The notes: generated by a model not told the origin, from the letters alone. 64,000 nt of DNA from Nannocystis bainbridge (GCF_028368995.1 NZ_JAQNDL010000003.1:1600001-1664000), one strand, 5' to 3'; counted from the stretch's first letter, positions 1 through 18,570 are shown. Program-made: numbers and translations.

Positions 1-696
1 GAGCTGGACGGCGCGGGGACTATCGGCGCCGACCTCGATCTCGAGCCGCTCCATGTCCGGCGGCACCTCGAGCATCACCGACAGATCCGCGCGCTCCAGC
101 GTGTGCAGGCCCGGCTGCGACGGCATCACCGGCGTCAGCCCGAGCCGCGCGCAGATCGCCGCGGCCGCGTCGATGCGCCGCGGGTCCACCGGGTCGAACA
201 CCTCCTCCCGCCGGAACGAGCGCCTGCCCGCCGCGGCGAACAGGAACGCGTGCCGCTGCAGCATGCCCGTCCACGAGCGCGCGACGACGTGGGCGCGGGC
301 TTCGCGGAAGGCGTCCGGATCACCTTCGTCCTCGAAGCTCACGACGGGCGGGTCGTCCGGATCGCCGCGCTGTAGATCGAGGAACCAGTCCTCGCGGATG
401 TCGCGGCCGATGCCGAGGTCGATGCCGACCTTGAGAAAGCGGTCTGTCGGGTACGACGGCGGCGTGGAAAGCAGGTGCGGCCACAGCTCGGCGGCGCGGC
501 AGTCGGCCACCGGCAGCGCCGAGAAGCTGCCGGTCGAGCCGCCCATCGCCCGCAGGAACTCGACGTACGCGCGCGGCAGCGGCCGCGGACTCAGCTCGGC
601 GAGCCTCTCGATGTCTCCGGACGTGGCGCCGCGGACCTGGGCGCGCAGGTCGGGCACGCGGGCGACGAGGAAGGCGAAGATCGCGGGAAACGACAT
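1..696 (-). CDS. SMI1/KNR4 (SUKH)-family immunity protein, 3' end runs off the window
   Basis: Not in the ORF track. Manual translation from ATG at 696 gives MSFPAIFAFLVARVPDLRAQVRGATSGDIERLAELSPRPLPRAYVEFLRAMGG..., the SMI1-type 'GAT..DI..L....LP..Y.EFL..MGG' pattern, later 'PPVVSF'. The frame is open to position 1 and lies directly downstream of the toxin gene. Confidence 0.75.
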   Translation of the reverse strand, partial: MSFPAIFAFLVARVPDLRAQVRGATSGDIERLAELSPRPLPRAYVEFLRAMGGSTGSFSALPVADCRAAELWPHLLSTPPSYPTDRFLKVGIDLGIGRDIREDWFLDLQRGDPDDPPVVSFEDEGDPDAFREARAHVVARSWTGMLQRHAFLFAAAGRRSFRREEVFDPVDPRRIDAAAAICARLGLTPVMPSQPGLHTLERADLSVMLEVPPDMERLEIEVGADSPRAVQL

Positions 697-6859: not shown

Positions 6860-8101
6860 ATGGCCGCGCGCGAGGTCGATCCGCTGTGGGACATCGTCGA
6901 GGAGCACTTCGACGAGGGCGAATTCCTGTGGCACGTCTGGCAGCAGAGCCTGATCGCCCCCGACTACAATCTCGACGAGGTCGCCGAGGGCCCCGAGGAG
7001 CGGTTGCTCGCGCACGTCGAGGGCCTGATCGTCAACGGGCCCCTGGTCGCCAGCCGACTGCTGCTGCCTGCGCTCGTCAGCGCCGCTCCGGCCCGCGTCA
7101 GCGTCGCCGCGCTGGCGCTGCTGCACGGTCCGCGCGGCGAGGCGGCGCTCGCCAACATCGTCGACGTCGTGCGCCGAAGGCCGCAGCAGCGCGGGCCTCT
7201 GGTGCGCGCCATGGCCTGCGTCGATGCGCCGTGGCTGCGGGCGCGCCTCCGCGAATTGCTGGCCGACGACGACCTCGGCGTTGTCGCCACCGCGGCTGCG
7301 GTGTTGACATTGCATCACGAGCCGCTCGGCGACGCCCTGGGGCTGCTGCTCGCCGACGACCAGAGCGCGACGCGAGCGCTGGCGCTGCGGGCCCTCGCCG
7401 ACGAGCCCGATCCGGGGAGATACGCGCGCGCCGTGCAGGCTGGCTTGCAGGAGCTCGACCCGATCGTGCTCGACGCGGCGATCGACGCCGGCGTGCGCCT
7501 CGGCCTCGCCCCCGCGTGGGCCCGCGCGCGCGAGCGCATGGCCGAGCCCGACGGCGGCGCCTCGATGTTGCTGTTGGCCTTGCGCGGCGAAGCGAGCGAC
7601 CTCGACGCGCTCGTCGCAGCCCTGCGCGACCGCAAGCGACGGCTGCCCGCCTTGTGGGCGCTCGGTTTTCGCGGCACGCCCGAGGTCGTCGACGCCGCGC
7701 TCGCATGGCTCGACGATCTCTCCGCGGGTCCGCTGGCCGGCGAGGTCTTCACCGCCGCGACCGGCATCGACCTCGCCGCCGCCGGCATGTCGCTGCCGCG
7801 CGACGACGATCACGAATCCTTCGACCATCGCCCCGAGGACGACCTGCCGCGGCCGGACCCGATGCTCGTCCTGCAGTGGTGGGCCCGGCACCGCCCGCAA
7901 TTCATCGACGGCCAGCGCTACCTCGCCGGTGCCCCGCGCTCGCACGCATCGCTGCTCCGCGAGCTGCGGTTCGGCGCCATGCGCCGGCGCCCCGGGCACC
8001 TCCTCGACCTCGCGCTCGACCTGCCGCCGCAGCGCCGCCCGCGGCTACCGCTCGGCGCGCCCACGGCCCAGCAGCTGCGCGCGCTTGCCTCGCTGAAGTG
8101 A
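6860..8101 (+). CDS. TIGR02270-family HEAT/helical-repeat protein (T6SS-linked)
   Basis: GGAG RBS then MAAREVDPLWDIVEEHFDEGEFLW..., EERLLAHVEGL, AGEVFTAATG, DLP.PD....WW, GQRYLAG, MRRR. Confidence 0.85.
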   Translation: MAAREVDPLWDIVEEHFDEGEFLWHVWQQSLIAPDYNLDEVAEGPEERLLAHVEGLIVNGPLVASRLLLPALVSAAPARVSVAALALLHGPRGEAALANIVDVVRRRPQQRGPLVRAMACVDAPWLRARLRELLADDDLGVVATAAAVLTLHHEPLGDALGLLLADDQSATRALALRALADEPDPGRYARAVQAGLQELDPIVLDAAIDAGVRLGLAPAWARARERMAEPDGGASMLLLALRGEASDLDALVAALRDRKRRLPALWALGFRGTPEVVDAALAWLDDLSAGPLAGEVFTAATGIDLAAAGMSLPRDDDHESFDHRPEDDLPRPDPMLVLQWWARHRPQFIDGQRYLAGAPRSHASLLRELRFGAMRRRPGHLLDLALDLPPQRRPRLPLGAPTAQQLRALASLK

Positions 8102-8110
8102 CGCGCGGGG

Positions 8111-9229
8111 CTACGACCCCGGCGTCGCCTGCTTGCGCGCCGCGCCGCTGCGAATGCAGTGCTTGAGGGCGTCGCGCAGCCTGGCGTGCACCGAGACGTG
8201 CGAAAGATCGATCCCCAGCGCCACGATCGTCTGCGCGATCGTCGGGTGGATACCGGTGAGGATCCCTTCCGCGCCCAGCAGCCGGATCGCCTGGATCATC
8301 CGGATCAGGTGGCTCGCCGTCCCCGTGTCGACCACCTCGACCCCGGTCAGATCGAGGATGGCGAATCGGGCCCGCGTCTGCGTCACCGCCTGCAGCAGGC
8401 TGTCCATGATCTCGGCGGTGCGCGCGGTGTCGATGAGGCCGACGATCGGCATCGTCAGCACCCCGTCCCACACCTCGATGATCGGCGTCGCTAGCACGCG
8501 GATCACCTCCTGCTGGCGCTCGACCAGCTCGAGCTTGCTGCGCAGCTCGAGCTCGGCGCGCTTGGCCTCCGACACGTTGACCGTCACGCCCACCACGCGC
8601 ACTTCGCCCGGAGCGCCGTTCACCGGGATGTACCAGGTGTCGAAGAACTCGCCGTACAGCTCGACGCCGCCGGTGAACTCCGGCCGCCCACCGATCGCCG
8701 AGGCCACGACGTCGTTGTTGCCGGCCGAGCCGTACATCTCGAAGATATTCTTGCCGACGAACTGGTCCATCGACATCCCGAGCGCCCGCATCGACTTGCC
8801 GTCCATGTAGAGGAACGTGCCCCGCTCGTCGGTCGCCCACAGCGAAATCTCGAGGTTGTCCTTGATCGCCGTCAGCATCGTCGCCTCGAGCGCCGCCGCG
8901 GCCTCCGCCTCCACGCGGGCCGTGACGTCGTGGCCGTAAACGACCGTGCCGGACCTGTCCGCGAGGCTCTGCGTCCACACCTCGATCGAAAGCGTCGCCT
9001 CGCCCTGGCGGATCTGCATCACCCTCGACGCGGGCCCGGGCTCGTCGGCCAGCGCGCGCCACGAGCCGCCCACGAGCGGCAGTACCTCGGCGACGTCGCG
9101 GCCGATCGCCGCCGCAGCACCTGTCCCGAAGACCAGCTCTGCTCGCCGGTTCCAGCCGACCACCCCGAGCGCGGCGTCGACCTCGATCACGATCAACGGG
9201 GCGTCCTGCAAGATACTCGCGTCGCTCAC
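8111..9229 (-). CDS. PAS-PAS-STAS protein (RsbR-like)
   Basis: PAS segments (WNRRAE.VFG; G.F....GK...LG....VGKNI) and a C-terminal STAS domain (LATPIIEVWDGVL.MPIVG.IDT.R, ILDLTGV.VVD, LLGA..ILTGI.P.IAQT). GTG start inferred at 9229. Confidence 0.9.
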   Translation of the reverse strand: MSDASILQDAPLIVIEVDAALGVVGWNRRAELVFGTGAAAAIGRDVAEVLPLVGGSWRALADEPGPASRVMQIRQGEATLSIEVWTQSLADRSGTVVYGHDVTARVEAEAAAALEATMLTAIKDNLEISLWATDERGTFLYMDGKSMRALGMSMDQFVGKNIFEMYGSAGNNDVVASAIGGRPEFTGGVELYGEFFDTWYIPVNGAPGEVRVVGVTVNVSEAKRAELELRSKLELVERQQEVIRVLATPIIEVWDGVLTMPIVGLIDTARTAEIMDSLLQAVTQTRARFAILDLTGVEVVDTGTASHLIRMIQAIRLLGAEGILTGIHPTIAQTIVALGIDLSHVSVHARLRDALKHCIRSGAARKQATPGS

Positions 9230-9440
9230 GGAACCCTGTGTATCCGAGGTTCCGCCGCCTGTCCTGCCCCTCGTCCGCGCACTGCCGCGCGCCCTGTGCA
9301 TCGGTCTCGTCGCTCGCGCCGGGTGTCCGTGTGATGCATCCCTCGGCCACTCTCCCGCGGCGCGAAGTCGCGTCGGCGCTCCGCGCTTCGTGAGAGATCG
9401 GGCACACCGGCGGCCCCTGCGAACGAGCATGCCGTCCGCG

Positions 9441-10541
9441 TCAGCCCGATGCTTCCAGCAGCTGCCGACCGAGCGCCTCCGGACAGCGCCACAGATCGGC
9501 CACCGGCTCATACGGACACACCGTCGTGCGCGCGCCCGATCGCGGCGCGGCTGGCGGCGCATCGTCCGCCGCGATGTCCGTGAGCCTGGTGGTCTCGCGC
9601 AGCTGCAGGTCCGCGTGCCCGTCGCCGTCGACATCGCGGGCCAGCCACACCGTCTCCGCCGTCGACTCGCTGCCGCCGACATCCTCCGCGCGCATCGCAT
9701 ACCGACGCGTCGCCGAGAACTGCACGTGCATGTCGGCCACCTCGAGGATGAACCCGACCTCCCCGCTCTCGTGGTCCATCGCCTGATCGTGCTGCGGCCG
9801 CTCGACCGGCACGATCACCGTCAGCTCCGAGCGCCCGTCGCCGTCGATGTCGTACGCCTTGAACTTGTGCGGCACGTCGTCGACCCGCAGCGAAGTCTCG
9901 AACAGCCGCCTCCGCCCCAGCACCGCCCCGTCACGCACCCGCGCGACCTCCCACGCGAACACCTCGCGCCCGGCTGCCGACCACATCACGTGCCGATCGG
10001 CGATGACCCCTTCAAGGCACACGCTGAGCTCCCCCGGGGTCGCTTCACACGCGTCCACCTGCGCCTCCAACCCCGCCAGCGCGGCCTCGAGCCGGCCCGC
10101 TCGCCGCTCCTGCGCCCGCCAGGCCCGCGCGCCGTACCAGCGCAGCAGCACCAGCTCCTCGCGCCCGACGGCCCGCCGCTCGACGACCTCGACCACCTCC
10201 GCGTCCTCACCCGCGAGCACCCGCGCGAGCACCTCGAGCTCGGCCGTATTCGTCGTCGTCACCCCATGCTTCGCCGCTTCGACCTTCGTCGTCTCGGGTC
10301 CAACTACCTTCCCCGCTTCAACCTTCGTCCCCGGTCCAACATCCTTCGCGGCTTCAGCCTCCGCCTCCGCGACCTTCCCCATCACCTTGTCCGTCGCCAC
10401 CACCGCGACCTCCTTCGTCGGCGGAGCCACGACCTCGACCACAGGCCCGCCGGCCTCGGCATCACTCCCGCGACCGGTGCAGCCCATCGCACCGCCCAGC
10501 GCGACGATCGACAGGAGCGCGCGCAGCCTCGAGATCGACAT
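9441..10541 (-). CDS. Hypothetical lipoprotein with two DxDGDG motifs
   Basis: Lipobox-like ALGGAMGC; short EAAK/EAGK-VGP-TK repeats; DIDGDG and DVDGDG putative Ca-binding loops. Confidence 0.7.
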   Translation of the reverse strand: MSISRLRALLSIVALGGAMGCTGRGSDAEAGGPVVEVVAPPTKEVAVVATDKVMGKVAEAEAEAAKDVGPGTKVEAGKVVGPETTKVEAAKHGVTTTNTAELEVLARVLAGEDAEVVEVVERRAVGREELVLLRWYGARAWRAQERRAGRLEAALAGLEAQVDACEATPGELSVCLEGVIADRHVMWSAAGREVFAWEVARVRDGAVLGRRRLFETSLRVDDVPHKFKAYDIDGDGRSELTVIVPVERPQHDQAMDHESGEVGFILEVADMHVQFSATRRYAMRAEDVGGSESTAETVWLARDVDGDGHADLQLRETTRLTDIAADDAPPAAPRSGARTTVCPYEPVADLWRCPEALGRQLLEASG

Positions 10542-10589
10542 GCGGCCAGTCAGCCACGTTCGCCCCCGCCGCGTCAACCGTGCCTCGCC

Positions 10590-12791
10590 TCATGGACTCG
10601 CATCACCGATTCGCAACTCCATCAGATGTTCGTCCCGCCAGCGGGCGACCACTTTGACTCCCCCCTCCTTCCACGTCACCGACGAAGCTCCGGTCTTCTC
10701 CGGATGTTTCACGGTTGCGGGGTGCCCGACAGCCTGCGACAGAATCCTGTCCGCTGGCCACGACGGTGAGTGCAGCGCCCGCCGCCCGACCGGGCCGACG
10801 GCGTAGATTCCGTCACAGTTGCCCGCTGCATCGAAACTGAAGAAGACCTCGGATCCCTCGAGCAAGGCGACCGAGAGCTTCTTGCTTCGCGAATGCAGCG
10901 GGGGGAACAGCGCGCGCAAGGTCGCCTCGTCGGCACCGATCGCAGCAACCTTGGCGTGTTCGTCGTTCACCCAGGTCTTCGCTTCCTTCGCCAGCGCCTG
11001 CAGCTCCTCGTCGTCCTTCAAGACAGCAAGCGTCTGTTCGGCCAGGGTTCCGACCTGCCCGAGCGCTTGAAGTCGCTCACCGGAGGCTTCTGCACCCAGC
11101 TCGCGGCGCACGAGCACATCGACGATCTTCCCTTTTGCCCGCTCGACTGCGGCGGCCCTCGCGGTGCTCCCCTGCGCAGCGTTGGCAGCCCTGGCGATCG
11201 TCAAACGACAGGGCTCGTCGGTGCACTGGCTGCTCCGCGAATCAATCGCGCGTGCCCGCTCCTCCGCGAGCTCTGGATCGCCGCGCCAGCTCTCGGCAAA
11301 CCACCGATCGATCGCGCCTTCGGCGTCCGTCGCATGACCATCCGCCACGAGCCTGCGGATCTCCGTCAGGCGCTCGGCTCGCGCGATCGTGGCCGCCGTC
11401 GCGGAGCGTTCCCTCCCGTGAGCAGCGATCTGATCCAGTCGCTTGAGCCGCTCCTCCCCCGCGGCCTCGTTCGCCTCGGCCAAAAGGATGGTGTCCTCGG
11501 CCTCGACGAAGGTCTGGTCGCTCGTCTCGCGCAGCGCCGCCAGCACCACGCGGGCCCGTCGTGTATCGCCGACGGCGAGCGCCTGATCGATCTCTTCGGC
11601 GGAGGGGCGAGCCACCACCCCGACGATGGCCATTGCCAGCAACGCGGCCGCCCAGAGCCCGAGGCACACCTGCTCGACTCGCTTCAGCCCCTTGAATCCC
11701 TTGCCGGTGCCCCATATTCGGAGGACTCCGCCTATCCATAATACCGCCAGCACCGTCGCCCCGAGCCATAACAGGCTCGTCGCACCGGCGGCATCTTTGA
11801 AGTACTCCGAGCGCCCGGTCGTGGAGCTCGGCATTGCGCTGCATACACTGACGAAGAGGGCGAGGATCGGCCACACGAAGAGCCGGCGACGAATCGGTCG
11901 CTTGGCTTCGGGCGTGCTGGCACCGACGAGCTGGTGGCCGGAGAGTACGAGCACGCCCGAGGTGCCGCACATGGCGTAAGATACGTCTCGTCGCGGCACC
12001 CGCAGCTGGATATAGTGCTGCTGCGCGACCCGCTCGAGGCGCGGGTCGACCCCCGCCGTCGCCCCCTGGACCGCCGAACGGCCATCCAGCTCCAGATCCG
12101 CGAGCGGCAAGGGGCCGGGAGCTTTCCGGTCGACGGCCACCGTGAACGCGGCGACGTCGTTCTCCCTCAGCAATCGAGGTTCGGTGAGCTGGCGATGAGC
12201 CAACGCGACGGGGGACTGAGGCTGGACCACGACGCTCACGCGTCTGGTCTCCACGAACGTGAGCCACGCCCGCTGATGGCCCGAGCCGTTGCAAGTCGTG
12301 CACGGAACGTTGCCGCGTCCCGCACAATTTCCACAACTGGCCTGCCCCGTTCCCTTGCACTGCTTGCACTTGTTGAGGCGGTTCGTGCTCGGGTTGCGGA
12401 ACCGCCCGGCGCCGCCACAGTTCGAACAGGAGACGCTCGCGCGGCCGCTGCACACCGAACAAGAGGCGGTGCCGGAGGCTCGACAGATCATGCAGCGCAC
12501 CACATGGGTCGTGCGTGCCTTCAAATCCTGAGCCGGGTAGGCGAACGGATCGAGCCGGGCGGGATCGACGCTCGGCTGCGTCACACCACGTTCGCTCGTC
12601 GTCGTGCGCTCTTCCCGAAGATCTCGGCGAATGATCTCGGTCAGCACCCGGTGGAGCACCTCGTCTTTGTTCTCGACCCCCGAGATCAACGATGCGAGCG
12701 CTCGCGGAGCGCCGAACACACTCCGAGCCCAAAGGTTGGCCGCTTCTGCGACATCGGGAGTGACAGGGGGGCTCGCGGGTCGGTCTACCAT
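10590..12791 (-). CDS. Membrane protein with DnaJ-type Cys-rich Zn-finger repeats, last gene of the His-Xaa-Ser operon
   Basis: Six CxxC motifs, most followed by xGxG-like residues (CMIC, CSVC, CSNC, CKQC, CGNC, CTTC). About three hydrophobic helices follow, then a large helical C-terminal region. Start overlaps the hxsA stop. Confidence 0.8.
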   Translation of the reverse strand: MVDRPASPPVTPDVAEAANLWARSVFGAPRALASLISGVENKDEVLHRVLTEIIRRDLREERTTTSERGVTQPSVDPARLDPFAYPAQDLKARTTHVVRCMICRASGTASCSVCSGRASVSCSNCGGAGRFRNPSTNRLNKCKQCKGTGQASCGNCAGRGNVPCTTCNGSGHQRAWLTFVETRRVSVVVQPQSPVALAHRQLTEPRLLRENDVAAFTVAVDRKAPGPLPLADLELDGRSAVQGATAGVDPRLERVAQQHYIQLRVPRRDVSYAMCGTSGVLVLSGHQLVGASTPEAKRPIRRRLFVWPILALFVSVCSAMPSSTTGRSEYFKDAAGATSLLWLGATVLAVLWIGGVLRIWGTGKGFKGLKRVEQVCLGLWAAALLAMAIVGVVARPSAEEIDQALAVGDTRRARVVLAALRETSDQTFVEAEDTILLAEANEAAGEERLKRLDQIAAHGRERSATAATIARAERLTEIRRLVADGHATDAEGAIDRWFAESWRGDPELAEERARAIDSRSSQCTDEPCRLTIARAANAAQGSTARAAAVERAKGKIVDVLVRRELGAEASGERLQALGQVGTLAEQTLAVLKDDEELQALAKEAKTWVNDEHAKVAAIGADEATLRALFPPLHSRSKKLSVALLEGSEVFFSFDAAGNCDGIYAVGPVGRRALHSPSWPADRILSQAVGHPATVKHPEKTGASSVTWKEGGVKVVARWRDEHLMELRIGDASP

Positions 12792-13438
12792 TCGATCTTC
12801 ACCGTGCCGGTCTGGCCATCGAGGATCTCGATCGTGACCTCATGATCACCGAGAAACCGGTTCTGAACGCGTACCGTATGAGAGCCGGGTTTCAGCACGT
12901 GCTTGCCCGTCGCGTCAGTCCCCAGCTCCTTGCCATCAACGAAGATCTTTCCGCCCGGGAAGGCCTCGAACGACACGTTTGCCGGCTTGGGCGGCTTCGG
13001 CTTGACGGGCTTCGGCGCCGGCTCCGGCGGCGGATGGACGGCCTTGCTCCCTCCGTGGCCGCTGCTGCTGCTGCTGCTTCCGCTGCTGCTGCCGCCGCTG
13101 CTGCTGCTGCTGCTGCTGCCGCCGCCCCCACCACCGCCGTAGCCGGAGGAGGGAGGCATCGCCGACATGTGCGAGGCGTGCGATCGATGGTACGAGCCGG
13201 ACGAGTGGCTGCTGTGGGAACGATGCGACGAATGAGACCGATGCGATCGATGTGCCAGGAGCGGCAGCTCGACGTCGGAGGGCGCCAGGAGCAGCGCCGG
13301 CGCGAGCTCTTCCTCCGGATCTTCCGTCCGCTTGCCGATCCGCGCCGCAGCGTCGGGGACGAGCAGGCCAGTCCCGGCTGCAGCCCCGAGCACGGCGAGA
13401 AGCGCGGCACCCAACGTCTTCAGTTTCCCCGATGCCAT
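12785..13438 (-). CDS. hxsA: His-Xaa-Ser repeat precursor fused to a C-terminal PEGA-like domain
   Basis: HRS-HRS-HSS-HRS-HSS-HSS-GSY-HRS-HAS-HMS, Gly/Ser and Pro-rich linkers, then PGGKIFVDGKELG...LKPGSHTVRV (PEGA-like). Sits beside two radical SAM genes. Confidence 0.88.
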   Translation of the reverse strand: MASGKLKTLGAALLAVLGAAAGTGLLVPDAAARIGKRTEDPEEELAPALLLAPSDVELPLLAHRSHRSHSSHRSHSSHSSGSYHRSHASHMSAMPPSSGYGGGGGGGSSSSSSSGGSSSGSSSSSSGHGGSKAVHPPPEPAPKPVKPKPPKPANVSFEAFPGGKIFVDGKELGTDATGKHVLKPGSHTVRVQNRFLGDHEVTIEILDGQTGTVKIEW

Positions 13439-13441
13439 GCC

Positions 13442-14638
13442 TCAATCCTCCCTCTGTGCGACCATCGGTCCGCTCTGCTCCGCGATTGCGAACGGAGCGA
13501 TCCCGCGGCTCCGCCGCACCACCGATGAAGCGAAGAACCCTCCGCACCGGGCTCGCGCCTCACATCGGGCGCACTCTTCGAGATATAGGTTCTTCCAGTC
13601 CGAGATCGACGCTCGTGCGAATCGGTGCAAGACCGGGTCCAGGACGCAGAGCTGATGGTTGTAAATGGACACGTGCATCCGCGCCCTGTCGAGGATCTCT
13701 ACCGCCTCGGCCAGCTCGCGCTGGTAATCCAGCGGATCGATCCATATTGCGTCGAGGTTGGAGCGAGCAAACCCCATGAGCTCGAGGCCCATCAGCGCGA
13801 CGTGGTCGACGAACAGGAGGTTCCTCGCCACGAAACGGGCGAAGGCCGGGAGCCTCTCGACCGTGTCGCGCTGGACGACGAAGCGTAGCTCGACGCGCAC
13901 CCGGTGCCGCTTGAGGTTCAAGATCCCTCGGATCGTCTGATCGAACGCGCCTCGGGCCTGGACCACGAAGTCGTGGACCTCGGGTAGATCGCCGTACAGC
14001 GGGATCCCCAGCATCAGATCTGGATGGCCGACCTTCGCCAACGCGAGGGCGAACTTCTCGTCCGCGAAGGCACGTCCGTTCGAGAGGATGTGGAGCGCCG
14101 TTCGTGGCAAGAACCGACGAAATCGATCCACCAGGTCCACCAGACGACTCCCGAGGAGGCCAGGCTCACCGCCGGTGATCCCGATCTCGGGCGTCTCCGG
14201 CGACATCATCGGGATGATCTCGAACAGCTCGTCGACCAGCCAGCCGTCGTCGCGCTCCTTCGGCGGTTGCGAGCACATGACGCAGTAGTTGTCGCATCGC
14301 TCGGTGACGAGCATGGAGTTGAAGGCCGAAGAGCGCCGGTACAGCACCGTCAACCCACTACGCTCGGGATGAATCCGGATGATGTCGCCGTCACCGAGGA
14401 AAGGAAATTCGGCGCCGATGAAGAAGACATTCGGCTGCCGGGCAACGCCTGTCTCGCTCCGCGTCAAGTAGGCTCGAAAACCGCCGGGGAGCTCGCATGG
14501 ACCCTCGACGAGCAAGATTTCACGAGAACGTGCGGCTGCAGGGAGCGCCGGGTTGGTGCATACGCGCCCGAGGAACGGCTCGGGCGACCGCTCGGGCGAC
14601 AGAGCGCGAAGGCTTCGTCCGTGGAGCTTGATCAGCAT
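13442..14638 (-). CDS. hxsC: His-Xaa-Ser system radical SAM maturase HxsC
   Basis: LVTERCDNYCVMCSQPP (CxxxCxxC), GITGGEP, LSNGR, SISDWKN, C-terminal CxxC....CGGFF. Confidence 0.92.
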   Translation of the reverse strand: MLIKLHGRSLRALSPERSPEPFLGRVCTNPALPAAARSREILLVEGPCELPGGFRAYLTRSETGVARQPNVFFIGAEFPFLGDGDIIRIHPERSGLTVLYRRSSAFNSMLVTERCDNYCVMCSQPPKERDDGWLVDELFEIIPMMSPETPEIGITGGEPGLLGSRLVDLVDRFRRFLPRTALHILSNGRAFADEKFALALAKVGHPDLMLGIPLYGDLPEVHDFVVQARGAFDQTIRGILNLKRHRVRVELRFVVQRDTVERLPAFARFVARNLLFVDHVALMGLELMGFARSNLDAIWIDPLDYQRELAEAVEILDRARMHVSIYNHQLCVLDPVLHRFARASISDWKNLYLEECARCEARARCGGFFASSVVRRSRGIAPFAIAEQSGPMVAQRED

Positions 14639-14642
14639 GGGT

Positions 14643-16103
14643 TCAGATCCAGCTCTGCAGGACTCGGCGGGCGGACGCGTCGTCCTCCATGAGGGCGATC
14701 AGGTGGCGGAGCACGGCCATCTGCTTTTTACAGAAGGACGAGAACGCCTTGTGGCCGATCACGTCTCCCTGCGTCGCCTTGTGAAAGACGGGGTCAGACC
14801 CGCAGTAGGGCATGAAGGCACAGTCGCTGCACATCGGCAGGCCCTCGAGCATCGAATCCTTCAACAGGTCGACGAGGGTATCGCTCGTCATGACCTCCTC
14901 GAAGGAGTCCTCGTCGAGATGCCCGAGTCTGAAGGTGTGATCGCCCATCTCCGCGAGCATTCTCCCCTCGTCGGAGGCATAGATCGCCCCATCATAGTTG
15001 TAGATGATGCCCGCGATCCCGAGCCCCGCCGGCGATTGCAAGTCGACGTAGCCGTTGCCGACAGGCGCGAACATCTTCTGCAGCAGGATGGCCGCGAATT
15101 CCTCGCGCATGGGATAGCCGCTGAGGTTGAGGTCGATGATATGCCGGAGCCCTTCGACGTAGAACTTCACCCAGTCGTCCACGTCGTAGCGGCGGACCAG
15201 ACTCGTGCGCACCGCGAAACCGTAAGGGCTCAGGCTGCGCAGGAATATCGAGTGAAAGCCCTGCTTGACGTACTCGTCGACGATCTCCCGCACCCGCGGC
15301 AGGCTCCCGGGCGAGGTCGTCATCAGGGCTGCTACCGCGTCAGGCCCGAGCGCTTCTCGGATGCGCTGGATCCCGTCGACCGCGGCGCGGTAGCTGCTAC
15401 CTCGCGGCAAAGCCCGGCGCTCGTCGTGCAGATCCGCGGGACCGTCGAGGGACGTCGAGAAGTAGATCCGGTGCCCCTTGCAGAAATCCAGGATCTCGTC
15501 GTTCAAGCGGGTCAGGTTCGAGGCGATGACGAACACGAGGTCGCGTCCGTGCTCCCGATTGAGGGACTCGGCCCGAAGTACGACGTGGCGGATCAAGTCG
15601 AAGTTGAGCAGGGGCTCTCCGCCTTGAAACTCGATCTTGATCGCGGGCGAGGGGCTGCGGAACACGAACTCGACTGCCCGGTCGGCGTGAGCCTGGCTCA
15701 TGTCGAAGCGGCTCTTCTCCTCCATCTGGCGCGAGACCTGGCAGTAGCTGCAGGTGTGGTCGCAGCGCAGCGTGACCACGAACATGTGCAGCGCCGTGAA
15801 GTCGGCGATCCGATCCGCCCGGCTTCGGTACTTGAGCGCGAGCAGATCGAGCGCGACCCTGGATTCGCCGTCGAACAGGAAGTGTCGGCTCTTGAGGTCG
15901 GCGTACAGCGGTGTGCCCGGCTGCAGTTCGTGCCGGAGCAGCGCCTGCAGCGCGGGCCGCTCCAGGACGACGTACTCCCCCACGTCGTTGGTGATCACGT
16001 AACGCCTGTCGTCGAGCCGAGAAAATCTGGCCGGCAGCAGCCGATAGGGGCCGCTCGGCGCGAAGGCGGAACGATCGCGGAAAGTGTCGGCGAGCTGGTT
16101 CAT
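14643..16103 (-). CDS. hxsB: His-Xaa-Ser system radical SAM/SPASM maturase HxsB
   Basis: LHMFVVTLRCDHTCSYCQVSR, IEFQGGEPLLNF, YVDLQSPAG, SDEGRMLAE, CSDCAFMPYCGSDP. ATG at 16103 overlaps the hxsD stop. Confidence 0.93.
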   Translation of the reverse strand: MNQLADTFRDRSAFAPSGPYRLLPARFSRLDDRRYVITNDVGEYVVLERPALQALLRHELQPGTPLYADLKSRHFLFDGESRVALDLLALKYRSRADRIADFTALHMFVVTLRCDHTCSYCQVSRQMEEKSRFDMSQAHADRAVEFVFRSPSPAIKIEFQGGEPLLNFDLIRHVVLRAESLNREHGRDLVFVIASNLTRLNDEILDFCKGHRIYFSTSLDGPADLHDERRALPRGSSYRAAVDGIQRIREALGPDAVAALMTTSPGSLPRVREIVDEYVKQGFHSIFLRSLSPYGFAVRTSLVRRYDVDDWVKFYVEGLRHIIDLNLSGYPMREEFAAILLQKMFAPVGNGYVDLQSPAGLGIAGIIYNYDGAIYASDEGRMLAEMGDHTFRLGHLDEDSFEEVMTSDTLVDLLKDSMLEGLPMCSDCAFMPYCGSDPVFHKATQGDVIGHKAFSSFCKKQMAVLRHLIALMEDDASARRVLQSWI

Positions 16104-16414
16104 CAGCGCTGCAGCAGGTCGGTGCGCGAGAACGCGTGCGCCAGGATCAGGGACCGCAACGCGTCCGTCTCCTCGTGAAGCTGAGCGCGAAGCTCCTCGT
16201 CGAGCAACTCTTGGTAGAAGACTCGGACGGCCTCCGCAGCGGCGGTATCGCTCGTCCGCGGCGGAAACGTGAAGCGCAGGATCGGCTCGTCCGAGTCCGA
16301 TGGTTCGAGGCGGACCGTGCACCGCTCCGCTACCCGATAGGCGGCCTTCTTGATCGCCGCTGGCCTGTATGTCTGTACGTCGATCCTCGTGTCGAACCTG
16401 TCATCGGCCGTCAT
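16103..16414 (-). CDS. hxsD: His-Xaa-Ser system small protein HxsD
   Basis: About 103 aa: Y...AIKKAAY...F.QELLDEELR.QL.EET..LR.LILAHAFS. First gene of the operon. Confidence 0.88.
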   Translation of the reverse strand: MTADDRFDTRIDVQTYRPAAIKKAAYRVAERCTVRLEPSDSDEPILRFTFPPRTSDTAAAEAVRVFYQELLDEELRAQLHEETDALRSLILAHAFSRTDLLQR

Positions 16415-16651
16415 GCCCGCTCCCAATACATGCGTCCCGCGACGCACTGGCTATGGCCCGAGGATAGAGGTTTCTTCGCCGATCTTCCAGCGCGCGCCAG
16501 GCGAGCATAGGTGGCACACAAACGCTGTTATCGAAGACAGTGGAAGTACGCTTCTCGGGTCGGATGAGCGTCAGCCTCGCCGGCTGGGTCTTCATCTGCG
16601 GAGATGATGCGGGTGGACACGTATGACACTTCCACCCGCCGGCTCGCGCAT

Positions 16652-16679
16652 GGGCTCCCGCCTCGTGAGGCGCGAGCCC
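16652..16679. terminator. GC-rich stem-loop after the di-heme cytochrome gene
   Basis: GGGCTC-C-CGCCT-CGTG-AGGCG-C-GAGCCC inverted repeat, 15 bp past the stop at 16695 (minus strand). No U-tract. Confidence 0.4.
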
Positions 16680-16694
16680 GCCGCTGCTGCCGTC

Positions 16695-18290
16695 TCACAG
16701 CGTCTTCAGGTACTCGATCACCGCCCGTCGCTCCTGCGCATCGAGGTGGTCACCGAACGGGTGCCCCGTGTTCCAGTGGCCCGTGATGGTCGTATCGTAC
16801 ACGTGCTTGCGTTCGTCGGCCGGCGCCCCGTCCTGGCCGTACGGCAGCTCGACCCATGGCCAGCCGACCGCCTCGGGGTCGTAGTTCGTGCTGTCGTAGT
16901 CTTCGCGGCGCCACCATTTCGGCCGGGCCTTGCTGTTCAGCACCAGCTCGATCGTCGGCACCGACGCATTGTGAAGGTACGGCGCGCTCGCCCAGATGCC
17001 GTCGAGCGGCGGCGCCACGTAGCCGACGAACGGGTCGCCGGTGGTGAGCTGGCCGACGTCGCCGTACCACGATGAATTGAACCAATCGGCGAACGGGCGC
17101 GCGTCGGCCTCGAAGGCCAGCAGCGGGTCGGTGCCGATCGTCGCCAGCGGCAGCAACATGTTCGGGTACGTCTCGAGCGCTGGATCGTCCGAATACGTGC
17201 CGTGGCAGCACGAGCAGTCGCGCACGAAGATCTCCTGGCCCTGGGCGGCCAGCTCCGCGTCGATCGCAAACGGGTACTTCGGCGCCTCGACCGACTCGAT
17301 GAACGCGCGGATGTTGTTGAAGTAGGAGAAGATGCCCTCCGCCTCCTCGACCGAATCGGTGCACAGGGCGCTGGCGTAGATCATCGTCGCCCGGTGGTCG
17401 CCGCGCGACATCCCGTTCCAGAACAGCCCGTGCTTCTTCTTGGTGTGCCACCACGGCGGCGTGTCGACCGGCAAGATGACCTCGGGCACCACCGTGTTCG
17501 GCTCGTCGAGCCACTCGAGCGTGTTGGCGTCATGGCGCGTCGAGAGCACCGCCGCCAGCGAGTCCGCCGGGTTGGTGCCGACCACCAGCATGCGCGTGTA
17601 GTCGCCGACGGCCTGGTAGCGCTGGGCCATGCGCGTCAGCTCCTCGAGCCCCGGGATCGGGATGCCGGGGATCGGGATCTCGGCCAGAAATCCGCCGATC
17701 TGCTCGGTGTAATCGGCGTCGGCCTTGCCGAGGCCGATGACCAGCTCGCCGTTGAATTTGCCGGCGTGACACTCGAGGCAATTGAGCGAGACGATCTCGG
17801 CGCCGCTGCTCTTCGAGGTGTGCACGGTCCAGTTGTAGGGCACCTGGGCGTTCTTGCCGGTGCGGCCGGGGAGCGACTCGCCCTCGCCGAACGACCCGAG
17901 GAGCGGGGCGGCCAGCGGAAACAAAACGAAGGGGATCCCGCACGAGACGTAGCCCTCGTTGAGGAGGGCGTGATAGCCCGCGGCGGCGTCGCCCTGGACC
18001 TGCTCGCTGCCGGGGATCGGGTAGCCCATAGCGCAGGCGGCCGGCGGCGGGTCGTCGCCGTCGGTGGTCGCCTCGCCGTGCGACGAGCCGGTCGTCGGCG
18101 GGTCGACCCCCGAATCACTGGCCTCGGTCGGGCCCGGGCCGGCGGTGTCCGCCGTCGTGCTCGCGCTGCCACCATTCGTGCCGTCGCTGCCGTCGCCGTC
18201 GCTGCCCTGGGCCGGCGGGTCGCCGTCGCCGCAGGCGGCCAGGGCCAGACATGTCGCTGCAATCCACGTTCTCTGCGTCATCGATGCCAT
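16695..18290 (-). CDS. Di-heme c-type cytochrome lipoprotein, RoxA/MauG-like
   Basis: Strong RBS (AGGAGGAG), lipobox LALAAC, two heme motifs CLECH and CSCCH, PPWWH, YVAPPLDGIWASAPYLHNASVPT, terminal N.GH.F...L...ER.AVIEYLKTL. Confidence 0.85.
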   Translation of the reverse strand: MASMTQRTWIAATCLALAACGDGDPPAQGSDGDGSDGTNGGSASTTADTAGPGPTEASDSGVDPPTTGSSHGEATTDGDDPPPAACAMGYPIPGSEQVQGDAAAGYHALLNEGYVSCGIPFVLFPLAAPLLGSFGEGESLPGRTGKNAQVPYNWTVHTSKSSGAEIVSLNCLECHAGKFNGELVIGLGKADADYTEQIGGFLAEIPIPGIPIPGLEELTRMAQRYQAVGDYTRMLVVGTNPADSLAAVLSTRHDANTLEWLDEPNTVVPEVILPVDTPPWWHTKKKHGLFWNGMSRGDHRATMIYASALCTDSVEEAEGIFSYFNNIRAFIESVEAPKYPFAIDAELAAQGQEIFVRDCSCCHGTYSDDPALETYPNMLLPLATIGTDPLLAFEADARPFADWFNSSWYGDVGQLTTGDPFVGYVAPPLDGIWASAPYLHNASVPTIELVLNSKARPKWWRREDYDSTNYDPEAVGWPWVELPYGQDGAPADERKHVYDTTITGHWNTGHPFGDHLDAQERRAVIEYLKTL

Positions 18291-18570
18291 CGCGTACTCC
18301 TCCTCCTGGACCGTCGCGCCGCCGCTCGCAGCGACGGCGGGCCCACCCGCTCGCCGGCGCTCCGCTGCGTACCTCGGTCCGGACCTCTGCGCCCCCGCGC
18401 CACGTCGCGCTCCCACGCCGCCACGGCGGGCGCCGGGCGCACGGGCCCGATTGCATGGAGCTGACGAGAACACTGTACATGGGCGGACTATCGTCATTCC
18501 GGCGCGCCGGAATGGGCATTGGGGGGCTCATGCCCCGAGCGCGTCGCCCGGGCGGGCGACGCCGCGAATG

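Follow-up and report, generated by a model that had tools for sequence, protein, structure and literature searches.

The closest described relative of the locus studied here is the His-Xaa-Ser (HXS) system, whose functional study is that of Li et al. (Nat Commun 2026, PMC13128918, plus a preprint). According to the main text of that paper, the Escherichia coli operon hxsD-hxsB-hxsC-hxsA acts against 110 of 113 coliphages by keeping their DNA from entering, and its discoverers present HXS as the first defence shown to block phage DNA entry. E. coli HxsA acts in the periplasm, its signal peptide and its peptidoglycan-binding domain are both essential for defence, and it carries processing dependent on radical S-adenosylmethionine (SAM) enzymes as well as a +8 Da SHRSS modification. 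Here we describe a variant of this system in a 64,000-nt stretch of Nannocystis bainbridge DNA (NZ_JAQNDL010000003.1:1600001-1664000, hereafter the window), in which four hxs genes are followed by a fifth gene, orf733, encoding a membrane protein.

Effector export, positioning and mode of action are left open in the discussion of PMC13128918. Export of E. coli HxsA was concluded to be non-canonical, possibly requiring dedicated chaperones or host factors, and infection-triggered signalling is one of the open models; defence was shown for one E. coli operon only. In the HxsA-homology survey of the same paper, 99.7% of systems were in Pseudomonadota and more than 99.8% were four-protein systems. 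Its main text contains none of the words PEGA, Myxococc-, zinc or transmembrane, and the fifth gene reported here is new in that it is not described there. The initial annotation of the window, made from the sequence alone, had considered the role of the Hxs proteins unresolved, a statement which the E. coli work has made outdated.

The cassette and its distribution

Five consecutive minus-strand genes lie head to tail at 10590-16414 (Table 1), running from hxsD through hxsB, hxsC and an hxsA-like gene to orf733. As read from the sequence, hxsD and hxsB overlap by 1 nt (TGATG), hxsB and hxsC are separated by a 4-nt gap, hxsC and hxsA by a 3-nt gap, and hxsA and orf733 overlap by 7 nt (ATGGTAG). 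The five genes are one tightly coupled cassette, and the close packing of co-oriented genes seen in the initial annotation was confirmed, with junctions ranging from a 7-nt overlap to a 4-nt gap. The hxsB start (MNQLAD) was chosen within a longer open reading frame (ORF), 14643-16322.

Table 1. Features of the cassette and its surroundings, in window coordinates.
Feature	Coordinates	Strand	Size or residues	Description	Basis
hxsD	16103..16414	minus	103 aa	small HxsC-binding accessory protein	TIGR03976, 56.3 bits vs cut-off 50
hxsB	14643..16103	minus	486 aa	radical SAM/SPASM maturase	TIGR03978, 607.8 bits vs cut-off 370; PF04055
hxsC	13442..14638	minus	398 aa	radical SAM maturase	TIGR03977, 390.2 bits vs cut-off 267.9
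hxsA variant	12785..13438	minus	217 aa	below curated HxsA cut-offs	translation
HxS repeat array	13163..13252	minus	HxsA residues 63-92	nine H-x-S units	regular expression on translation
PEGA-like C-terminal domain of HxsA	12788..12988	minus	HxsA residues 151-217		PF08308, sub-threshold
orf733	10590..12791	minus	733 aa	membrane protein, fifth cassette component	no described family
DnaJ/BSD2-type cysteine-rich zinc-finger region	12276..12497	minus	orf733 residues 99-172	predicted cytoplasmic	
Three transmembrane (TM) helices	11613..11882	minus	orf733 residues 304-322, 339-357, 375-393		hydropathy
Predicted periplasmic domain	10593..11606	minus	orf733 residues 396-733		model secondary structure
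C-terminal periplasmic module	10593..11237	minus	orf733 residues ~519-733	from invariant C523-x4-C528	
Intergenic region upstream of hxsD	16415..16694	minus	280 nt	presumed promoter region	sequence
Segment absent from syntenic site of same-genus genomes	9294..16693			FG-GAP gene + five-gene cassette	

HxsD, HxsB and HxsC each exceed the curated NCBIfam equivalog cut-off. The radical SAM motif CxxxCxxC is present in HxsB (residues 114-121, with C-terminal cysteines at 425, 428, 434 and 458) and in HxsC (residues 115-122, with C-terminal cysteines at 356, 359 and 365). In HxsD, residues 70-78 read LLDEELRAQ and keep only in part the family motif LLNDYxLRE, which, like the pull-down of HxsC with HxsD, is reported in PMC13128918. 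The window thus shares with the E. coli system these three proteins, both radical SAM motifs, the gene order D-B-C-A, an HxsA with a signal peptide and a tandem HxS array, and an HxsB that falls inside the canonical clade. Unlike the E. coli system, the window's HxsA has nine HxS units, not five, and ends in a PEGA-like domain, not in the peptidoglycan-binding domain essential in E. coli; furthermore, D-B-C-A is followed by an obligately adjacent membrane protein. HxsA also falls below the cut-offs of TIGR03979 (28 vs 121.65 bits), HxsA2 (21.7 vs 48) and HxsA3 (25.4 vs 65), its matches spanning the repeat region only. A protein that fails every curated HxsA model illustrates how surveys based on HxsA miss whole HXS clades.

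The HxsA variant consists of a signal peptide, an acidic stretch, the HxS array, a Gly/Ser/Pro linker and the PEGA-like domain, ending in Trp-stop, and the same architecture is found in all nine aligned orthologs. Its signal peptide, as judged by eye, is an N-terminal hydrophobic segment; this signal-like segment and the tandem HxS repeats are kept in 9/9 orthologs. The units follow one another as HRS HRS HSS HRS HSS HSS, then HRS HAS HMS, and H69-H78 are invariant in the ortholog alignment (A2). By analogy with the +8 Da SHRSS modification in E. coli, the array is the presumed substrate of HxsB and HxsC. The C-terminal 65 residues align to positions 11-65 of the 71 in the PEGA profile (PF08308). 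The window copy scores just under the gathering threshold (19.6 bits as an isolated domain and 15.6 bits in the whole protein, vs 20.8), while four of the nine orthologous HxsA proteins match at E <= 0.01, the best at 3.2e-5. Unlike PEGA domains at large, the HxsA sub-type has Trp-stop as its end in every case and goes with the orf733 family, either as neighbour or as fusion. For a peptidoglycan-binding domain, the window's HxsA gave no Pfam match even at E <= 10.

Two surveys were made of the association between orf733 and hxs genes. In the first, 401 genomes of the window's class (the class sample) were searched with a profile built from 24 orf733 homologs (A1), an alignment without a conserved stretch of 7-10 columns. 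Full-length orf733 orthologs were found in 9/401 genomes, the window's own included, and in all nine, hxsD-B-C-A with a PEGA-type hxsA directly adjoins orf733. In the second, an HxsB alignment (A3) yielded 565 relatives among species representatives, and the best 80 of the 565 loci were typed. Twelve of these 80 are at least 59.8% identical to the window's HxsB, all from Myxococcota or "Deltaproteobacteria" metagenome-assembled genomes (MAGs) by name; an orf733-family ORF and a PEGA-type HxsA stand next to hxsDBC in eleven, the twelfth being cut by a contig end inside hxsC. Neither an orf733-family nor a PEGA-like ORF was found in the remaining 68 of the best 80 loci, whose HxsB is 49-59% identical and which come from Pseudomonadota, Planctomycetota, Acidobacteriota, Verrucomicrobiota, Nitrospirota, Actinomycetota, Cyanobacteriota, Bacteroidota and others.

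When both surveys are combined and contigs seen twice are removed, 18 assessable genomes remain (nine from the class sample and nine further), and hxs, orf733 and PEGA-type HxsA are associated in 18/18. The initial annotation had named a complete lack of co-occurrence between orf733 homologs and hxs genes as the observation that would speak against it; in these 18 genomes the opposite was found, and the link is real. In an HxsB tree (FastTree, 93 sequences, midpoint root, no bootstrap), the 18 loci and the cut locus form a single clade with a Shimodaira-Hasegawa-like support of 100, nested among canonical HXS loci; within this clade, HxsB is 60-71% identical to that of the window.

The gene order varies across the clade. 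Nannocystaceae- and Kofleriaceae-type loci have D-B-C-A-733, Archangium and Corallococcus have 733-A-D-B-C, one MAG has A-733-D-B-C, and three loci are arranged divergently; hxsA and orf733 are neighbours in all four arrangements. Where the order is D-B-C-A-733, hxsA and orf733 either overlap by 7 nt or are separated by 0 to 31 nt, and in 4/4 loci of the 733-A-D-B-C order they share an ATGA overlap; translational coupling of the pair is the usual state. Neighbours that stay together while the order around them changes speak more strongly for a functional tie than does synteny that was simply inherited. That orf733 merely follows hxsA by chance is hardly credible: the protein does belong to no known family and no function ties it directly to hxs, but the 18/18 loci, four gene orders, overlapping junctions and a PEGA-like domain common to both proteins argue against coincidence. 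So does the lack of conservation among the other flanking genes, none of which is common to the window and the eight other class-sample loci, and the 32-68% protein identity among orf733 orthologs argues against copies of one recent mobile element. Judged by gene content and phylogeny, the cassette is a real, conserved and clade-specific five-gene variant of HXS, confined to myxobacteria.

The closest cassettes outside the clade carry short HxsA proteins, here provisionally labelled HxsA2/HxsA3-like (NF038296/NF038309). They provide the nearest non-myxobacterial HxsB (49-59% identity) and HxsC (40-57%), hxsD is present, and both a signal peptide and an HxS array are seen in their HxsA. They differ from the myxobacterial loci in that most of these HxsA proteins are about 90-100 aa long, end with the repeats, have no C-terminal domain and are encoded upstream of hxsD, and in that 0/68 loci have an orf733 or PEGA-like ORF. 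The canonical-clade hxsD-B-C loci within the best 80 of 565 span at least eight phyla in addition to Pseudomonadota, a wider range than the 99.7% Pseudomonadota of the HxsA-based survey in PMC13128918.

Several further Hxs loci were observed. In a Kofleriaceae MAG (L118:5153-10524), a PEGA-like ORF (7995-8366) and another full-length orf733 homolog (8260-10524) form a second tandem pair after hxsD-B-C-A-733. In L121:9684-10457, short ORFs matching orf733 profile positions 550-738 lie after hxsC and look like remnants of a second orf733 copy, a full-length copy being present before hxsD. The window's own genome contains a second Hxs-like locus on contig C3 at about 1603575-1605820 (L009:9575-11819), with HxsD at 55.3 bits, the HxsD-like model NF038315 at 73.7 and HxsB at 573.8; this HxsB is 38% identical to that of the window, and no HxsC or HxS-repeat ORF lies within about 8 kb. 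HxsB above E 1e-60 is present in 118/401 class genomes and in 9/10 same-genus genomes. By identity to the window's HxsB, the typed class-sample HxsB loci (L064-L112) divide into one group at 33-39% and another at 60-71%, and the low-identity type forms a separate clade in the tree.

Architecture of orf733 and its link to the PEGA-like domain

No Pfam, NCBIfam or PADLOC family matches orf733, and its relatives are likewise without annotation. A word-index search returned 25 homologs, all of 700-840 residues, the named ones being Labilithrix and Polyangiaceae MAGs, whereas a locus search with orf733 as sole query returned no loci. An exhaustive search of representatives gave 267 at E <= 1e-30, and the cassette provides the first functional context for this family without a Pfam domain.

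The recurring partner of orf733 is the PEGA-like domain. Among 171 orf733-family members (protein clusters) examined, at least six (P0025, P0049, P0055, P0062, P0082 and P0086) have a PEGA-like domain fused to the C-terminus by way of a Pro-rich linker, with Val/Gly-Trp as the last residues, as in HxsA, and P0091 appears similar by eye. The HxsA domain and the C-terminal extension of P0025 are 43% identical (E 9e-16). In an AlphaFold2 model of the fused P0049 (predicted local distance difference test, pLDDT, 90.1), residues 758-819 fold as a separate beta domain. A split counterpart exists in another class: in genome G129, the gene for a distant orf733 paralog overlaps the gene that follows it, which encodes a small secreted PEGA-like protein; the C-terminus of the latter and the HxsA domain align over their full length (hhalign probability 88%, E 3.3e-6). 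Near about 20 distant paralogs that match in the N-terminal part only, no PEGA-like partner was found except in G129, mostly with 1.5 kb covered per side. A word-index search for longer proteins with the HxsA C-terminal domain gave no match, and it also missed the known fusion P0025.

A third form is reduced. In two Corallococcus genomes, sp. CA053C and C. exercitus, hxsA is preceded by an ORF that encodes a signal anchor followed by profile positions 524-738 only, from CxxxxC to the end (about 260 aa; L120:5156-6034 and L122:5158-6054), with the zinc-finger and membrane parts missing. A C-terminal periplasmic module thereby accompanies PEGA-type HxsA in every locus. The fusions, the split pair of G129 and the Corallococcus mini forms jointly point to this module as the constant partner of the PEGA-like domain, and the three natural forms of the protein (fused, split, and reduced to its C-terminal module) indicate which piece probably contacts the effector.

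The AlphaFold2 model of the full orf733 (mean pLDDT 87.4, predicted template modelling score 0.50) presents a beta-rich N-terminal domain with a cysteine-rich insert, and three long helices (294-318, 329-359 and 371-393) at the predicted membrane positions. Five lysines or arginines were counted before TM1 and five in the TM2-TM3 loop. Given that K/R-rich stretches precede TM1 and separate TM2 from TM3, the protein should adopt an N-in, C-out topology, with its first 300 residues cytoplasmic and its last 338 periplasmic. This predicted topology puts the C-terminal module on the same membrane side as exported HxsA.

The cysteine-rich region is the best-conserved part of the orf733 family (0.61 majority fraction). 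In A1, six CxxC motifs between residues 100 and 167 are invariant, enough for three putative zinc sites, as are two further cysteines, C523 and C528. Profile matches of the region to the Protein Data Bank (PDB) include BSD2 (6ekb, E 7e-4) and DnaJ (1exk, E 0.003). Against 6ekb, Foldseek gives a probability of 1.00 and a TMt of 0.75 over 61 columns; VIA-align gives Z 7.8 and a root-mean-square deviation of 3.1 with 58 aligned residues. By both motif and modelled fold, residues 99-172 qualify as a DnaJ/BSD2-type region with predicted zinc binding. As in the DnaJ and BSD2 domains, CxxC pairs are repeated and profile and fold agree. Unlike those domains, however, orf733 has six CxxC motifs (three putative zinc sites) and not four, its region forms part of the beta-rich cytoplasmic domain, 300 residues long, of a membrane protein without a J domain, and it does not reach the Pfam models for the DnaJ-type zinc-finger domain.

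In the periplasmic part, the model shows helical repeats resembling tetratricopeptide repeats (TPR) at about 399-628, followed by an alpha/beta domain at about 632-729. Weak fold leads were obtained for both: TPR-like for the middle of the protein (BamD 3qky, probability 0.95), and a CAP-associated N-terminal domain or DUF4309 for the last domain (4ifa, Z 7.7; 4ygt, probability 0.99, Z 6.8). No fold is named for these parts because the scores lie in the range that the tool calls common. Searching the PDB with Foldseek gave no match at E <= 0.001 for the model of orf733 or of the fused form, VIA-wide Z scores outside the zinc finger reach at most 8.4, on helical segments and within the tool's stated noise range, and the ESM Atlas gave scores of at most 0.77, with weak structural leads only (SSUH2-like, DUF2844-like). 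The anti-sigma factor DdvA (8rw5) came up at a Foldseek probability of 0.15 and was dropped.

Candidate roles of the fifth component

The reading we consider probable, if only slightly so, is that orf733 is an inner-membrane dock for the matured effector, as the fusions, the neighbourhood and the predicted topology suggest. By extension from E. coli, HxsB and HxsC, together with HxsD, would modify the HxS array of HxsA in the cytoplasm before or during export, and HxsA would then be exported through its N-terminal signal peptide. Its PEGA-like domain would dock on the C-terminal periplasmic module of orf733, so that the modified, basic HxS array would be kept on the outer side of the inner membrane, where phage DNA passes on its way in. 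In this manner, orf733 would replace the cell-wall anchor of the four-gene system. The initial annotation had proposed an exported protein that partners the membrane protein in the envelope, rather than a released ribosomally synthesised and post-translationally modified peptide; the signal peptide of HxsA and the PEGA-like domain fused to orf733 homologs fit its proposal better. The cassette may be seen as a natural experiment, in which a PEGA-like domain and a dedicated inner-membrane protein have taken the place of the effector's cell-wall anchor. The position of HxsA and its need for a membrane partner become directly testable questions through the myxobacterial clade.

A number of observations weigh against the docking model. 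The anti-phage activity, the modification and the export are all extrapolated from E. coli proteins that are about 50% identical or less. Docking itself cannot be read from the fused-form model of P0049, since the prediction output does not report inter-domain contacts, and an anchor leaves the conservation of the zinc-finger region unexplained. In the majority of the 68 nearest outgroup loci, HxsA is about 90-100 aa long and has no anchor domain; therefore, anchoring is not a general need of HXS. The orf733/PEGA pair also occurs apart from hxs: no hxs gene lies near the paralog/PEGA pair of G129, the fused P0025 gene is on a 9.1-kb contig without hxs (L113, genome G723), and the 6-Mb MAG of P0025, of unstated completeness, has no HxsB above the cut-off. 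Since the P0025 fusion and the G129 pair occur without hxs, the pair has a function of its own, and orf733 may exceed a passive anchor. Finally, a PADLOC scan at E <= 1e-5, covering 76 genes in the flanks (15 of the window, 61 of the eight other loci), found no defence gene flanking the cassette in the window, L058, L062 or L063, and several of the matches found elsewhere are generic ATPase or helicase domains.

The conserved cytoplasmic region leads to a different proposal, namely that orf733 is a transmembrane relay. Its periplasmic domain and PEGA-type HxsA would sense an envelope event, such as phage DNA entry or DNA-loaded HxsA, and the zinc-finger domain would pass it on to a cytoplasmic response. 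All 12 zinc-finger cysteines are invariant, the segment is the best conserved, and the architecture, in which three TM helices join a large cytoplasmic domain to a large TPR-like one in the periplasm, would suit such a role. The occurrence of the pair without hxs suggests an autonomous module, and infection-triggered signalling is among the models left open in PMC13128918. Nevertheless, no recognisable output domain (kinase, DNA-binding or nuclease) appeared in the family and fold searches, the sole structural hint was DdvA at its Foldseek probability of 0.15, and two Corallococcus loci without the entire cytoplasmic part keep hxsA and hxsDBC. We regard a relay as rather unlikely. The initial annotation had also offered a cell-surface sensing and a metal-binding module, readings for which our analysis gave no evidence.

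DnaJ/BSD2-type cysteine-rich domains act on unfolded clients. It is thus conceivable that orf733 is a maturation or export scaffold, whose DnaJ-type domain would hold unfolded pre-HxsA or recruit HxsB, HxsC and HxsD at the membrane, coupling modification to export. The fold match, the translational coupling of hxsA with orf733, and the non-canonical export of E. coli HxsA, with its possible need for dedicated chaperones or host factors (PMC13128918), are in line with such a scaffold. The recurring link, however, is between the periplasmic C-terminus and the PEGA-like domain and not with the radical SAM genes, as seen in the fusions, in G129 and in the MAG without HxsB above the cut-off. Moreover, the Corallococcus mini forms have no cytoplasmic domain, and the four-gene systems of the 68 outgroup loci work without an orf733-like protein. 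A scaffold therefore seems to us distinctly improbable.

Returning to the docking model, the orf733/PEGA pair looks like a pre-existing module that was recruited by the HXS clade, in which orf733 may also signal or act as a chaperone. A bolder version, which we put forward as speculative and doubtful, is that orf733 and the PEGA-like domain form an undescribed autonomous two-part envelope module (fused or split, with or without hxs) captured by the myxobacterial HXS, whose periplasmic module would bind modified HxsA and whose three-site zinc-finger domain would couple events at the site of DNA entry to the cytoplasm. If true, HXS would defend in two compartments and include a transmembrane component for signalling or gating.

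Composition, acquisition and neighbouring genes

The window has a G+C content of about 72%. At 65.5%, the cassette ranks at the 1.0 percentile among 11,021 segments of its size across the 11.05-Mb genome (mean 71.5%, standard deviation 2.0), and the G+C content at third codon positions (GC3) is 0.785-0.871 in its five genes vs 0.876-0.913 in four flanking genes. In the same-genus genomes G680, G606 and G641, homologs of window positions 8140-9293 and 16694 onward are 206, 279 and 1193 nt apart, the 7.4 kb between them being missing. None of the 10 other genomes of the genus searched has a full-length orf733 ortholog, and the seven with typed HxsB loci all carry only the other HxsB type. Horizontal acquisition, suggested in the initial annotation from codon usage, is supported by the low G+C and GC3 together with this absence from the syntenic site in three genomes; loss from the congeners is the alternative. 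Given that the nearest HxsB relatives in the tree (71% identity) are in same-family genomes, the source is likely another myxobacterium. No tRNA was found in the window, and no integrase-like signal or direct or inverted repeats bracket the insert.

In the PADLOC scan, matches were found in the flanks of five of the eight other loci. These include MkoA-like (2e-33), TIR (9e-13), PDC-M37B/DolB (4e-33) and mad3 (4e-27), as well as IetA (3e-28) directly after orf733 in L060; the window flanks have two generic enzyme-domain matches only. Because several PADLOC models cover common ATPase domains, the flanking genes give modest support to a defence context. This evidence also bears on whether the myxobacterial cassette has another envelope function of HxsA on orf733, such as metal binding or cell-surface chemistry, instead of phage defence. 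A His-rich array could bind metal, no defence system lies in the window's own flanks, and defence has been shown for a single E. coli operon (PMC13128918). On the other hand, the HxsB of the window is placed within the canonical HXS clade, the cassette is accessory and patchily distributed (0/10 other genus genomes have full-length orf733, and the seven typed carry the other HxsB type), the composition is atypical, and defence-family neighbours are present in 5/8 other loci. We consider a non-defence function very unlikely.

As for expression signals, a sigma-70 consensus scan of 9300-16900 gave no promoter-like sites, and the expression-signal scan gave three terminator-like sites vs 2.3 expected. 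Cassette DNA is listed in six soil metagenome runs, with shares of at most 0.26, and no RNA run is listed for it.

A sixth ORF (9441-10577), FG-GAP lipoprotein-like, lies 12 nt downstream of the cassette, inside the segment missing from the congeners. It was rejected as a sixth member of the cassette, being found in 0/8 other loci. In both G606 and G680 its orthologs (82% nucleotide identity) are found hundreds of kb away, pointing to a rearrangement joint beside the cassette. The gene upstream (16695-18497) belongs to the RoxA-like di-haem cytochrome c peroxidase family (PF21419; NF040606, 133.5 bits with a cut-off of 150).

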